64,000 nucleotides of DNA. Origin: Clostridiales bacterium. GTDB taxonomy: Bacteria; Bacillota; Clostridia; Oscillospirales; CAG-272. Of the stretch, positions 11,990-55,749 are shown piece after piece; positions within the stretch are counted from its first letter, which is position 1, and each line of letters opens with the position of its first letter. The notes beneath the pieces were generated by a model. The model was not told the DNA's origin. It was given only the letters and a program-made list of their open reading frames with translations, and ran no database searches. The stretch is from the NCBI GenBank assembly GCA_003150035.1, contig QALR01000013.1, forward strand, positions 12,690 through 76,689, written 5' to 3'. A program made the position numbers and the translations under genes.

Positions 11990-14396
11990 AAATATGGAGC
12001 AGAAAAAAAGCTTTGAGCGGGCGTGTGTCACGCTCGAATTCGATAAAGTCAAAGAAATGCTTGCCGCTGTCTGTCCGACGGAGGGGGCAAAAAAGCTTGC
12101 GGCGGCGCTGTACCCGTCGCGCACATTGCATACGGTGCGCCGTATGCTTGCCGAAACGGATGCGGCAAAGGCGATGCAGACCGTGAAAGGGATGCCTCCA
12201 TTTTACGGGATCGCTGATATTACGAACGCCGTGGACAGAGCGGACAAAGGGGCCGTGCTCACGCCAAAAGAAATCCTTGATGTCGGACGCACGCTCACGG
12301 CAGCGCGTGCCGTGCAGGCGTACCGAAACGCCGATCATACGGAGAAGACGGCGCTTGACGAATATTTTGTGCGCCTTTCCCAGAATAAGTTTTTGGAAGA
12401 TAAAATTGAACGCTGCTTTGTCGGCGAGGAGGCCTTTTCCGACAACGCCAGCGAAACCTTATACGACATCCGGCGCAAAATGCGCGCGGAAAACGCAAAA
12501 ATCCGGGACAGCCTGCAAAAATACATTACCGGAAGCACATATGTGAAGTTTTTGCAGGAGCCGATTGTCACCATGCGGGATGGACGGTACGTCATTCCGG
12601 TGAAGCAGGAATACCGCGGTGAAATCAAGGGCCTTGTCCATGATACCTCGGCGTCGGGCGCGACGCTTTTTATAGAGCCTCTTTCCGTTGTGGAGTCCAA
12701 CAATGAGCTGCGGCTGCTTGAGCGCCGTGAGGCGGATGAAATCGAGCGGATCCTCGCCGAGCTTTCTGCAGACATTGCGGCATGCGCAGCAAAGCTTGCC
12801 GAGAACTATCGGAATCTGACTTTGCTTGCTTTCATTTTCGGAAAAAGTCAGCTTTCCTTTCGCATGGAGGGCATGGCGCCGGAAATGACGGAAAAAAAAG
12901 AGATCTGCCTTATCCGCGCACGCCATCCTCTGATTTCATCGGATACCGTTGTTCCGATTACCGTAAGGCTTGGCGGGGACTTTGATACGCTTGTGATTAC
13001 AGGCCCGAATACGGGAGGCAAAACGGTGACGCTGAAAACGCTCGGCTTGTTTTCTCTCATGGCGCAGGCGGGACTGCACATCCCGGTGTCAGACGGCTCT
13101 GCCCTCGGCGTTTTTGACGACATTCTCGCGGATATCGGCGATGAGCAGAGCATTGAGCAGTCGCTTTCCACGTTTTCCTCTCACATGGTGAATATCGTGG
13201 AGATTTTGAGGCGTGTGGGGGAACGCTCCCTGGTTTTGTTTGACGAGGTAGGCGCCGGCACGGACCCCGTCGAGGGCGCGGCGCTTGCGGTTTCGATTTT
13301 GGAGGCGGTGCGGGAGCGTGGCGCGCTGTGTGCCGCGACGACGCATTATGCGGAGCTTAAATCTTACGCGCTAAACACGGAGGGCGTGTGCAACGCGTCC
13401 TGCGAATTCGATGTGGAGACTCTGCGGCCGACCTATCGGCTGATTATCGGGACTCCCGGCAAATCCAATGCGTTTGCCATTTCCCGCAAGCTTGGCCTGC
13501 CCGACGATATCATTTCCCGGGCGCAGGGATATGTTTCCGGGGAGAGCCGGCGGTTCGAGTCTGTCATCGAACGGCTGGAGGCGGAGCGGGTCGCTATGGA
13601 AAAAGCCAAGGCCGAGGCACAGGCTCTGCTTGACGCAGCACGTACGAAAAAAGCGGAAATGGATGATTTTGTCGAAAAACGCGAACGCGAGGCGGAAAAG
13701 GAACTGGAAAAGGCGCGCGCGTCCGCTGTGCGGATGGTAGAAAGCGCCAAGGCATCGAGCGAATTTATCTTTGAACAGCTGGAGAAGGTCAAGCGCGAGC
13801 GGGAAAGCGAAAATCTGGCGAAAACCCTTGAGCAGGCGAAACGCGATATCAAGCTTCATCTGAAAGAGAACAGTGACAGCTTGGATCCCGTAAGTCCCAA
13901 AGTCGTCGAGAACTATGTCTTGCCGCGACCGCTGAAAAAGGGGGACGAGGTCATCCTCGTGAGCATTGGGAAGCGCGGCGTTCTTCTTTCCGACCCGGAC
14001 AAGAACGGGAATGTCACCGTGCAGGCAGGAATCATCAAAACCAAAACCAATGTGAAAAATCTGATGCTCATCGACGGGGTGAGCGTGACCTTTACCGATA
14101 AGAACAGAAAAAAAGCGCCGGTGAAAAGCATGGGGGACCGTGTGACGGCAGCGTTCAATCCGGAGCTTGATCTTCGAGGCAATTACGCGGACGACGCATG
14201 TCTTCTGCTCGACCGCTTTCTTGATGACGCGATGCGTGCCGGCGTGACGCAGGTGCGTATCATTCACGGCAAGGGCACCGGCGTCCTGCGGCGCGCCGTG
14301 ACGGATTTTCTGCGGCGTGACGTAAGAGTTGCCTCCGTGCGCTGCGGCGCCGTCGGAGAGGGAGATACGGGCGTTGCTATCGCCGAACTGAAATAA
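11979..14396 (+). CDS. mutS2: endonuclease MutS2
   Basis: Walker A GPNTGGKT, DEVGAGTDP, a long coiled-coil, and a C-terminal Smr domain (LDLRG ... IIHGKGTGVLR). Confidence 0.92.
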   Translation: MMTENMEQKKSFERACVTLEFDKVKEMLAAVCPTEGAKKLAAALYPSRTLHTVRRMLAETDAAKAMQTVKGMPPFYGIADITNAVDRADKGAVLTPKEILDVGRTLTAARAVQAYRNADHTEKTALDEYFVRLSQNKFLEDKIERCFVGEEAFSDNASETLYDIRRKMRAENAKIRDSLQKYITGSTYVKFLQEPIVTMRDGRYVIPVKQEYRGEIKGLVHDTSASGATLFIEPLSVVESNNELRLLERREADEIERILAELSADIAACAAKLAENYRNLTLLAFIFGKSQLSFRMEGMAPEMTEKKEICLIRARHPLISSDTVVPITVRLGGDFDTLVITGPNTGGKTVTLKTLGLFSLMAQAGLHIPVSDGSALGVFDDILADIGDEQSIEQSLSTFSSHMVNIVEILRRVGERSLVLFDEVGAGTDPVEGAALAVSILEAVRERGALCAATTHYAELKSYALNTEGVCNASCEFDVETLRPTYRLIIGTPGKSNAFAISRKLGLPDDIISRAQGYVSGESRRFESVIERLEAERVAMEKAKAEAQALLDAARTKKAEMDDFVEKREREAEKELEKARASAVRMVESAKASSEFIFEQLEKVKRERESENLAKTLEQAKRDIKLHLKENSDSLDPVSPKVVENYVLPRPLKKGDEVILVSIGKRGVLLSDPDKNGNVTVQAGIIKTKTNVKNLMLIDGVSVTFTDKNRKKAPVKSMGDRVTAAFNPELDLRGNYADDACLLLDRFLDDAMRAGVTQVRIIHGKGTGVLRRAVTDFLRRDVRVASVRCGAVGEGDTGVAIAELK

Positions 14397-54952: not shown

Positions 54953-54982
54953 TTGACAAGAGGTTTTTCGTCATGCTATAAT
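54953..54982 (+). promoter_or_regulatory. sigma-A promoter of tRNA-Gln
   Basis: TTGACA, 18 nt, TATAAT with an extended -10 TGc. The tRNA 5' end lies 22 nt downstream. Confidence 0.6.
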
Positions 54983-55004: not shown

Positions 55005-55082
55005 TGGGATATAGCCAAGTTGGTTAAGGCACAAGACTTTGACTCTTGCACTCCGCTGGTTCGAGTCCAGCTATCCCAGCCA
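55005..55082 (+). tRNA. tRNA-Gln (anticodon UUG), CCA encoded
   Basis: Hand fold: acceptor TGGGATA/TATCCCA, D arm GCC..GGC, anticodon stem CAAGA/TCTTG with loop CTTTGAC, T arm GCTGG-TTCGAGT-CCAGC, discriminator G, CCA. The variable region appears to be 6 nt. Confidence 0.85.
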
Positions 55083-55098
55083 TCATGAGTGTCTGATT

Positions 55099-55532
55099 TA
55101 GATGCAGGCACGAAAAAACGAGAAAAGCGGAGATTTCGAGAGATTTCTCCGCTTTTTTCGACTCTGAAGTTTTTCGAAATTTTGTAGATGCATTTCGGGC
55201 ATTTCGGGTCTGTAGACAGATTCGAACCGGCGAAATGCATTTTTTGATATAGATTCCCCACAGAAGCAAAACCGTGGACAGATTCGAACCGCCACACACT
55301 TTCCGAAGCCTTTCAAAAATCCTTCCCGTTCAAAATTTATTTACAAAGCCATAGATGCAACGACGTTTTGGACAGATTTGAACTACCACACTACTCCACC
55401 TGCCGAAAACAAGGTGAATCCAAAAAAGATGCAATTTCAGTTTGGATAGATTCGAACCACCACATTGCTTCAAAAGCAATGTAAAACGCAAATACAAAAT
55501 AGCTCCATCGTTTCAATGGACAGATCCGAACT
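55099..55532. repeat. array of five degenerate direct repeats (core TGGACAGATTCGAAC) with a companion TAGATGCA box
   Basis: Cores at 55213, 55275, 55369, 55443 and 55517. Boxes at 55099, 55185, 55352 and 55426. No credible coding potential. Confidence 0.75.
55123..55158 (+). terminator. rho-independent terminator after tRNA-Gln
   Basis: aaaagcggaga / tctccgctttt stem followed by a T-run. Confidence 0.7.
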
Positions 55533-55561: not shown

Positions 55562-55596
55562 ACAAAGAAAAAGCCACGGATCATAAAACCCGTGGC
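55562..55596 (-). terminator. minus-strand terminator-like hairpin
   Basis: gccacgg / ccgtggc stem with a 10-nt loop, followed on the minus strand by tttttctttg. Confidence 0.4.
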
Positions 55597-55712
55597 AAAA
55601 TATTTATCTCCCCGACAAACAGTAACAGGTTTATCGATGAGATAATTATATCACAAAACCGAGAACAAGTAAACCTATATCCTGTAAACAATCGTAAATA
55701 TTCTTTCTACAT

Positions 55713-55749
55713 AGCCAAATGCTTATCAGCCAAGCGTTTGGCTTTTTTT
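55713..55749 (+). terminator. plus-strand rho-independent terminator or attenuator 22 nt upstream of the first island gene
   Basis: 10-bp stem agccaaatgc / gcgtttggct (one G-U) followed by T7. Confidence 0.7.

Follow-up and report, generated by a model that had tools for sequence, protein, structure and literature searches.

A helically phased repeat array with inverted copies of the target tRNA T-arm in the putative left arm of an integrative element of Clostridia

What is the function of an array of degenerate direct repeats that lies behind a tRNA-Gln gene at the border of a genomic island? In a 64-kb window (by which we mean the whole stretch of Clostridiales DNA analysed, 64,000 nucleotides), the first-pass annotation had described five 16-nt cores accompanied by a shorter box, placed them between the tRNA and the island, and suggested a multi-site protein-binding array, naming recombinase arm-type sites, iterons or a centromere-like parS array, and operators for two AbrB-fold proteins as candidates. 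We analysed the array (Table 1) together with related loci, namely 60 loci from public genomes and metagenomes, mostly of gut and rumen Clostridia, which were retrieved with the first island protein as query.

Table 1. Coordinates of the tRNA target, the junction and the features of the array in the window
Feature	Position	Strand	Basis or remark
tRNA-Gln(TTG), integration target (attB left half)	55005..55082	+	ARAGORN and Rfam
Junction	55081..55088	.	CA of the CCA end (candidate crossover dinucleotide) plus variable hexamer TCATGA
Terminal box TAGATGCA (unit 0)	55099..55106	+	part of terminal inverted motif GATTTAGATG
Bidirectional terminator hairpin GCGGAGA...TCTCCGC, flanked by A and T runs	55113..55158	.	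inverted repeat
Degenerate core-like GCGGAGATTTCGAGAG	55127..55142		within terminator hairpin, 28 nt after terminal box
Unit 1 box TAGATGCA	55185..55192	+	28 nt start-to-start before core 1
Core 1	55213..55228	-	minus strand TGCATTTCGCCGGTTCGAATCTGTC
Core 2	55275..55290	-	consensus copy; no clear box, TAGATTCC 25 nt before
Conserved TTTATTTACAAAGCCA element between units 2 and 3	55336..55351		minus strand reads TTTGTAAAYA
Unit 3 box TAGATGCA	55352..55359	+	17 nt start-to-start before core 3
Core 3	55369..55384	-	motif scan
Unit 4 box AAGATGCA	55426..55433	+	17 nt before core 4
Core 4	55443..55458	-	motif scan
Degenerate unit 5 box TAGCTCCA	55500..55507	+	17 nt before core 5
Core 5	55517..55532	-	homologous to first unit of family C arrays
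Empty cargo slot, outside the array	55573..55707	-	promoter 55673-55645, terminator hairpin 55596-55573

A motif scan of the window recovered all five cores at the positions first described, with start spacings of 62, 94, 74 and 74 nt as reported and zero to two mismatches each to TGGACAGATTCGAACC. The rest of the 64 kb held two matches, both with three mismatches (at 13552 and 48906); chance would supply 0.61 core matches per window, and seven were reached in none of 100 shuffles. The CCACA said to continue copies 2 to 4 is there, one base further on than described (GCCACA, ACCACA and ACCACA). The box TAGATGCA occurs four times in the window against 1.5 expected, which is not significant alone, and three of these copies fall within 260 nt; with the variant AAGATGCA, also listed before, and the degenerate TAGCTCCA, the boxes number five where four had been recorded. 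The reported distance of 17 nt between box and core holds from start to start, in unit 5 as well as in units 3 and 4, and leaves an actual gap of 9 nt. In unit 1 it is 28 nt, and as a core-like GCGGAGATTTCGAGAG follows the terminal box at the same 28 nt, the array effectively comprises six units, the sixth degenerate and beginning at the very end of the element. All of these five to six units are found 17-450 bp away from the junction, and boxes are also present in the other arm. Core 1 is enclosed by the inverted repeat ATGCATTTCG/CGAAATGCAT (55188-55197/55231-55240), which is 10 bp long rather than the 8 bp given earlier, and the tandem GCATTTCGG duplication reported near it is present. The TTTATTTACAAAGCCA element between units 2 and 3 is common to family C (see below) and has 95% identity in its bin. 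The view that no plausible open reading frame covers the region held up, with at least two stops in every frame of both strands in 8 of 8 distinct related arrays, which excludes a protein-coding reading. Core copies were confined to this element end in the window and in the relatives examined, and a REP/BIME-like dispersed repeat, which the first-pass annotation had proposed checking for, is ruled out, since neither the 64-kb window nor the 20-kb stretches of elements contain a further copy with two or fewer mismatches.

The array does not lie between the tRNA and the island, as had been described. By the alignments, the island begins at 55083, right after the tRNA CCA, and the array constitutes its left arm. 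In many of the 60 loci a plus-strand tRNA stands a few hundred bp upstream of the homologous gene, namely tRNA-Gln(TTG) in the window and in L003, L017, L026, L032 and L061, tRNA-Gln(CTG) in L006, L007, L009 and L016, tRNA-Trp in L011, L012, L020, L021 and L038, and tRNA-Cys in L008. Behind all four tRNAs the window sequence from 55083/55089 on (terminal box, terminator and array) is kept, and the same left-end sequence is also kept at two non-tRNA sites (L013 and L033); the terminator is 76-94% conserved beside different tRNAs. In each host, the 3' acceptor strand of the tRNA co-varies with the host's own 5' strand, so that the whole tRNA must be chromosomal and the junction falls at the CCA end. 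The junction was defined by alignment of 10 loci, in which the hexamer after CA varies among near-identical elements (TCATGA, TGATGA, TGTTGA, TGATGC and TCATGC) and is followed by invariant GTGTCTGATTTAGATGCAGGCACG, the element sequence proper beginning at 55089 (GTGTCTGATT...). Judged by eye, the hexamer showed no correlation with the hypervariable spacer alleles.

Two related loci (L022 and L027) have the left end joined to the right end, as a circular joint or a tandem, and here the right-left junction reads CATCTAAATC-N12-CA-N12-GATTTAGATG, a symmetric 46 bp of the form box10-N12-CA-N12-box10. This corresponds to the imperfect inverted repeat of ~40-50 bp around a central dinucleotide by which large serine recombinase att sites are recognized. 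Inverted copies of the terminal box (CATCTAAATC) mark the right end in L022, L027 and L001, and a second right-end box, CATCTAAAT, lies 44 bp further in, giving two inverted boxes at the right end in all. No element end motifs were found in viral contigs, and searches of plasmid and phage collections for similar arrays matched the tRNA only.

Arrays of one to five units occupy the corresponding position in relatives, with unchanged orientation. Five units of near-identical sequence are present in L001, L003, L010, L022, L026, L032, L033, L053 and L061, and recombination between cores has left four units in L013 and two in L017. Family B (L016) has four units, family C (L011, L012, L020, L021, L024, L038 and L060) three to four, and two further families have a single unit (L006, L007 and L009; L008 and L005). 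The array is absent from L074, a related element upstream of a thi operon, and from its relatives L048-L050 at their right-left junctions.

Read on the minus strand, the core is GGTTCGAATCTGTCCA, that is, a T-loop, the 3' half of a T-stem and the first two acceptor bases, and each core is preceded on that strand by a 5-nt stretch able to pair with it. The T-loop of the adjacent tRNA-Gln(TTG) is GTTCGAGTC (55059-55067). When the minus strand of each array was aligned to the sense strands of all target tRNAs (antisense controls scored 5-11), the best-matching tRNA class was the class behind which the element sits in 14 of 15 arrays from five families. Family A scored 13-20.5 against tRNA-Gln(TTG) and at most 13.5 against other classes, family B 15 against tRNA-Gln(CTG) versus 12-13, and family C 17.5-21 against tRNA-Trp versus at most 14.5; the two single-unit families leaned the same way toward their own target tRNA, more weakly. 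Exact runs shared with the target tRNA reach 17, 20 and 14 nt, among them TTTCGCTGGTTCGAATC, the 17-nt run between unit 1 and the tRNA-Gln of L003, and TGTCGTGGGTTCAAGTCCTT, between family C unit 3 and the tRNA-Trp of L021, and core 1 on its minus strand (TGCATTTCGCCGGTTCGAATCTGTC) reproduces tRNA-Gln(TTG) from the end of the anticodon stem through the variable loop to the T-arm. The copied part of the tRNA is the variable loop plus T-arm; similarity does not extend into the acceptor 3' strand, and the copied segment ends 10-14 nt from the crossover. The T-loops of family A and B cores are mostly canonical (GGTTCGAATC; G53 T54 T55 C56 R57 A58), while core 5 and many family C cores carry G58, family C stems are always mismatched at positions 50/64, and array stems use many G.T pairs. 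On the strength of this matching, the cores are inverted copies of the variable loop and T-arm of the target tRNA, by true homology, where the first-pass annotation had seen a mere resemblance to a reversed T-loop in a sequence unable to fold as a tRNA; the inability to fold is upheld by the standard detectors. That annotation had missed the relation of the cores to the target, as it had the ownership of the array by the element and the whole-turn spacing described below.

The boxes follow the element end in a corresponding manner, the internal box agreeing with the terminal box in each family. Family A has the box sequence GCATCT, the L006 type GTCATCT and the L008 type TGGCATCTTTTT; in family C the terminus and internal box alike read GGATCG in L011 and L038 and GGATCT in L012, L020 and L021, and its boxes resemble the degenerate unit 5 box TAGCTCCA of the window (ATGGAGC or ATGGACT on the minus strand). 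Remnants of attL or attR are excluded as the source of the units, which run opposite to the target tRNA and do not reach the acceptor end, and a sense T-arm followed by TGCATCTA on one strand is seen at neither end junction.

In the window, the centre of the target T-loop is separated from those of the cores by 160, 222, 316, 390 and 464 bp, which at 10.5 bp per turn is 15.24, 21.14, 30.10, 37.14 and 44.19 turns. Corresponding distances are 159, 221, 326 and 390 bp in family C and 162, 222, 328 and 403 bp in family B. The Rayleigh R is 0.95-0.96 for families A and C, with its maximum at exactly 10.50 bp, and 0.80 for the pooled arrays against a null mean of 0.22, the pooled arrays being homologous and hence not independent. 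Differences in length between families come to about one turn (316 versus 326; 74 versus 64; box to core 17 versus 28), and the one unit of the L006 family, at 14.38 turns, does not keep phase. Intrinsic bending by phased A-tracts is not supported (R = 0.17 at 10.5 bp). A comparison of cores with spacers in homologous element ends, proposed with the first description of the array, gave mean pairwise identities of 95.1% and 82.7%, respectively, and the conservation value of cores plus boxes was reached by 71 of 5,000 random windows. Family A shows zero indels over 389 aligned nt, with some spacer segments only ~70% identical, and its hairpin segments combine hypervariable sequence with fixed length.

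Downstream, the plus strand of the element encodes DUF4314, two DNA methyltransferases, DUF3849, YodL/DUF3846, SpoVG and a Tad-like pilus locus, a gene set that includes anti-restriction-type genes. No Rep or Par domains were found in 9 kb of the window or in 20 kb of L061, and no relaxase, oriT, DDE transposase or IS110-type recombinase was seen in the element sequence examined. Iterons or parS sites, both proposed earlier, are not supported: the 20 kb seen contain neither a rep nor a par gene, and the repeats are 62-94 bp apart, unlike the ~11-22 bp of such sites; the operator proposal fared no better, as nothing links the array to the AbrB-fold proteins 7 kb away. Next to the array is an empty cargo slot, whose promoter and terminator bracket variable minus-strand cargo genes in relatives; the slot is filled with genes in L001, L013 and others, and the segment is missing in L010, L011, L012, L016, L017, L026 and L033. 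The array is flanked by two terminators, and a long co-oriented operon without a visible promoter lies downstream of it; the minus strand of the array comes right behind the cargo-slot terminator, with no dedicated promoter seen. Serine recombinase genes were seen in relatives only. In L001 a large serine recombinase gene lies 2.9 kb upstream of a right end of the same type, and L069 and L074 each have three serine recombinase genes in a row. Relatives also encode a 284-aa protein consisting of a Recombinase domain only.

With the units so tRNA-like in sequence, their folding deserves scrutiny. Only the genuine tRNA-Gln was detected by ARAGORN in standard mode and by Rfam RF00005, whose covariance model gave no match in the array units even at E ≤ 10, and no Rfam family matched the array. 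These searches exclude real or decayed tRNA genes, and the T-arm homology together with the rejection by standard detectors indicates that the units are derived from tRNA without being tRNAs. Unit 4 was called as mtRNA-Gln only in relaxed or mitochondrial (armless) ARAGORN modes; at minimum energy it folds into a cloverleaf without a D-arm. Each of units 3 and 4 is a module of 65 nt, made up of an acceptor-like stem and an anticodon-arm-like hairpin and followed by a 9-nt spacer that holds the box; in the minus-strand unit 55437-55501 the hairpin loop TTTTGAA carries TTG, the Gln anticodon. Unit 1 is a palindrome that folds on both strands, and apart from it the folding z-scores of the units range from -0.5 to -1.2; for the whole array as single-stranded DNA they are -1.8 (minus strand) and -1.1 (plus strand). 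No covariation was found (RNAalifold term +0.8, double changes in 3 of 105 pairs), and the whole-array RNAalifold fold pairs neighbouring palindromic TTCGAA cores. On the minus strand, T-stem pairs comprise 100 Watson-Crick, 56 G.T and 29 mismatched, against 100, 8 and 77 on the plus strand, and unit 1 shows changes that look compensatory (GCCGG/CTGTC, GCCGG/CCGGC and GGTAG/CTGTC). The pairing and these changes are a hint of a minus-strand hairpin; tRNA ancestry combined with transition bias can explain most, not all, of the strand bias. Homologous units of family C either have the T-loop motif base-paired, within an outer stem, to sequence upstream of it or adopt other folds, and what is conserved there is the primary sequence TTCG-NNN-GTTCRRATCCTT.

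Given that each unit joins a T-arm copy to a copy of the terminal box and that units are spaced by whole turns, they are most likely protein-binding sites for integration or excision. We propose, with a little under half of our overall confidence, that the array is a set of phased double-stranded DNA sites for the recombination machinery of the element. It would serve as the left arm (attL/P') of an integrative element whose insertion site is immediately behind the CCA of a tRNA, and would comprise five to six bipartite sites, in each of which the core represents a distal part of attB and the box a part of attP, all on one face of the helix and in register with the T-loop of the adjacent target tRNA. 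Recombination proteins of the element (the integrase, which is probably of the large serine type, or a partner protein, or both) may bind these sites, wrapping the arm into a complex of higher order with an assisting or controlling part in integration and excision, by analogy with the att arms and res accessory sites of other systems. Phasing, the excess of core over spacer conservation, the lack of indels, weak folding and the absence of covariation all agree with the multi-site protein-binding array first suggested, and of the candidates then named, arm-type or accessory sites of a recombinase would fit best, as the boxes track the termini and the cores the target. To our knowledge, sites of ~50 bp suffice for large serine recombinases and no accessory sites are known for them, so that an accessory role here would be unprecedented in that group.

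Much of this evidence bears equally on a phased DNA-binding array of another kind, for which we see a small but real chance: a centromere-like partition site, a replication control site, or a multi-operator or silencing region at which an element regulator (e.g., the AbrB-fold proteins) insulates the element from the strong tRNA promoter. Phasing, conservation and constancy of length fit such a role just as well, and the position of the array between two terminators, ahead of a co-oriented operon lacking a visible promoter, suits it; however, it leaves unexplained why the cores copy the target tRNA and why the boxes are identical to the terminal inverted motif at both ends, there is no par or rep gene in the 20 kb seen, and because cargo genes intervene in relatives, the array stays with the element end and not with the first gene. 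Alternatively, the units might do nothing, as decaying inverted duplications of the 3' part of the target tRNA or the leftovers of a former element-borne tRNA array, multiplied in tandem and merely passed on with the element. Their clear derivation from tRNA, the variation in copy number from one to five by recombination between cores, and the existence of related elements at non-tRNA sites without an array are all compatible with a functionless relic, which we nevertheless consider unlikely, as the cores are far better conserved than the sequence between them, indels are lacking, families that differ in length by one turn stay in phase, att duplications would have the reverse orientation, and the boxes co-vary with the termini.

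Other alternatives place the function in a single strand. A minus-strand noncoding RNA of five tRNA-like modules lacking the D-arm, serving as a decoy or processing signal (e.g., for RNase P/Z or tRNA-targeting enzymes), would account for T-stem pairing that is found on the minus strand only (56 G.T pairs versus 8), for the mitochondrial tRNA-Gln call and D-armless minimum-energy cloverleaf of unit 4, for 65-nt units with 9-nt spacers in units 3 and 4, for hairpin segments that are hypervariable yet fixed in length, and for the minus-strand terminator that closes the array. We doubt it, since the folding z-scores are not significant, covariation is lacking, the Rfam tRNA model finds nothing at E ≤ 10, many T-loops have G58, family C units fold otherwise or pair the T-loop motif, a terminator lies ahead of the array with no dedicated promoter seen, and multiples of 10.5 nt would serve no purpose for an RNA. 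The same minus-strand pairing could belong to single-stranded DNA, with hairpins on the putative transferred strand acting as a single-strand origin, priming site or promoter after conjugation; the leading-type genes have the minus strand as their template, and the first gene has no visible double-strand promoter. This we regard as distinctly improbable, considering a fold z-score of just -1.8, the opposite-strand cargo genes that separate the array from the first gene in relatives, the lack of any relaxase or oriT in what was seen, and the failure of such an element to explain target mimicry and helical phasing. Least probable of all, in our view, is a bispecific guide like the bridge RNA of IS110, whose core would pair with the target tRNA gene and whose box would pair with the element end. 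Location at the element end and the co-variation of core with target and box with donor terminus speak for it, and against it stand a copied tRNA segment that ends 10-14 nt short of the crossover, the weak support for a fold, five units phased as DNA, and an element in which no IS110-type recombinase was seen.

How, then, do the proposed phased recombination sites compare with known systems? The attP arms of lambda, HP1, P4 and mv4 likewise carry direct repeats over hundreds of bp beside the crossover and inside the element. Lambda-like arm-type sites are needed for a wrapped recombination complex and are bound by heterobivalent tyrosine integrases, and many of these elements target tRNA 3' ends. 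However, known arm-type sites are unrelated to the target, whereas the repeats described here are inverted copies of the target T-arm; the element supplies no tRNA 3' segment and the crossover lies at the CCA; the recombinases of relatives are of the serine and not the tyrosine type; and the 450-bp array occupies one arm only. The accessory sites of serine resolvases and invertases (Tn3/gamma-delta res II/III, Sin site II and the Hin/Gin enhancer) share the principle of extra sites in helical register, bound by the recombinase or by architectural proteins next to the crossover site of a serine recombinase. Such sites wrap DNA and control the directionality of the reaction. They belong, though, to small serine recombinases and number two to three within ~120 bp, whereas the recombinases of relatives are of the large type. 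Multi-site transposon ends (the TnsB sites of Tn7 and L1-L3/R1-R3 of Mu) combine a terminal site with subterminal direct copies and have fewer, inverted copies at the other end, as is the case here, but at the outermost positions the two ends of this element do not form an inverted repeat, no DDE transposase was seen, and the junction is att-like, with a right-left joint of CA plus a variable hexamer. Repeats of tRNA 3' fragments that flank islands (att duplications and accretion remnants) also put pieces of the target tRNA at the border; these keep the orientation and 3' end of the tRNA, in contrast to the units here, which are inverted and short of the acceptor end, lie in tandem inside one element end, and are conserved and phased. 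IS110 bridge RNA, finally, is a feature of the element end with two parts matching target and donor end, but differs in recombinase type, the match here is beside the crossover, and a conserved fold was not found. By these comparisons the array may function most like the att arms of lambda-type elements or the accessory sites of serine resolvases, while fitting neither class. A limited literature search found no precedent for repeats that mimic the target tRNA in an att arm.

Two aspects make the array unusual: (i) its repeats are inverted copies of the target T-arm that change with the target across families, and (ii) the recombinases of relatives are of the large serine type, which is not known to need accessory DNA. 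A further, rather unlikely possibility is that the array is a target-specifying adaptor in which each unit physically couples a copy of the targeted tRNA segment with a copy of the element end; a large serine recombinase might use it as a DNA scaffold, or it might be a guide akin to bridge RNA. Were this so, exchange of the T-arm copies would offer a route from tRNA-Gln to tRNA-Trp or tRNA-Cys, and target choice would have a programmable layer of a kind not known for serine-recombinase elements. Even without a function, the array cleanly marks where elements of this family really begin on the left, directly after the CCA. If functional, it could explain target switching and would be relevant to serine integrases as genome-engineering tools, and it would show how elements that reside behind tRNA genes in gut Clostridia recognize or regulate their attachment site.

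In family C, the more distant elements that carry three to four array units and mostly lie behind tRNA-Trp, the array units contain a T-stem 50/64 mismatch identical to that which our parse places (as C.C or T.T) in the host target tRNA-Trp genes of L020, L021 and L038. The sigma-70 promoter that drives the tRNA-Gln gene of the window is perfect (12/12 matches; TTGACA-18-TATAAT, TG-extended), and the transcript of this gene is now ended by a terminator that the element brings. Array breakpoints at or within cores were found in several related loci (L002, L013, L017 and L027). Two loci, L027 and L032, look like deletion derivatives in which neither end of the element has been lost; L027 has the first four genes of the leading region followed by a right end, a CA junction and a left end, whose array stops short at core 3. 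A second, different repeat structure adjoins the array in L001 and L002, consisting of a series of short GC-rich hairpins with (AT)GAAG before each, and in L001 this run stands in place of the terminal box and terminator.

Beside the array in the window, a good minus-strand promoter (TTTACT-17-TGaTATAAT) leads directly into a terminator hairpin, forming an empty cargo slot. This promoter-terminator pair encloses differing minus-strand genes in relatives: the gene in L001 encodes a CHAP-domain protein, that in L013 encodes an HTH_3 protein, and several more are unannotated. Other relatives lack the entire segment. The hairpin and T-run preceding the first island gene are kept in all of the approximately 60 loci, regardless of the upstream sequence, and abut the ribosome-binding site, leaving too little space for an ordinary promoter of a long plus-strand operon.

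Coordinates of features in the window and in related loci (L handles)
Feature	Location	Detail
Sigma-70 promoter of tRNA-Gln	window 54953-54982	
Empty cargo slot	window 55573-55707	promoter and terminator hairpin, no gene between
Cargo-slot promoter	window 55673-55645	minus strand
Cargo-slot terminator hairpin	window 55596-55573	
Hairpin then T-run	window 55713-55743	AGCCAAATGCTTATCAGCCAAGCGTTTGGCTTTTTTT; directly 5' of the ribosome-binding site
tRNA-Trp genes with 50/64 mismatch	L020:2729-2804, L021:2720-2795, L038:445-520	
Second repeat structure	L001:4405-4620, L002:2380-2600	
Apparent deletion derivatives	L027:1-4022, L032:4897-6870	
Three consecutive serine-recombinase-type genes	L069:870-4878, L074:7594-11629	518, 282-284 and 534-542 aa
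thi-box leader	L074:13640-13800	
Element continuation past window end	L061:12396-20726	context same as window's

The related locus L069 and the array-less element L074 each encode a recombinase trio with a PemK-type toxin gene upstream, and the middle gene of the trio (282-284 aa) has a 'Recombinase' domain only. Just beyond the right end of the element in L074, a thi-box (TPP riboswitch-like) leader precedes thiS/F/G/H. The 20 kb available for L061 showed neither a relaxase gene nor type IV secretion genes. The continuation of the element there encodes a prepilin peptidase, an RcpC/CpaB-like protein, a T2SSE ATPase, a DUF4320 protein and an adhesin of very large size (MucBP/DUF8195), which jointly make up a Tad-like pilus locus.
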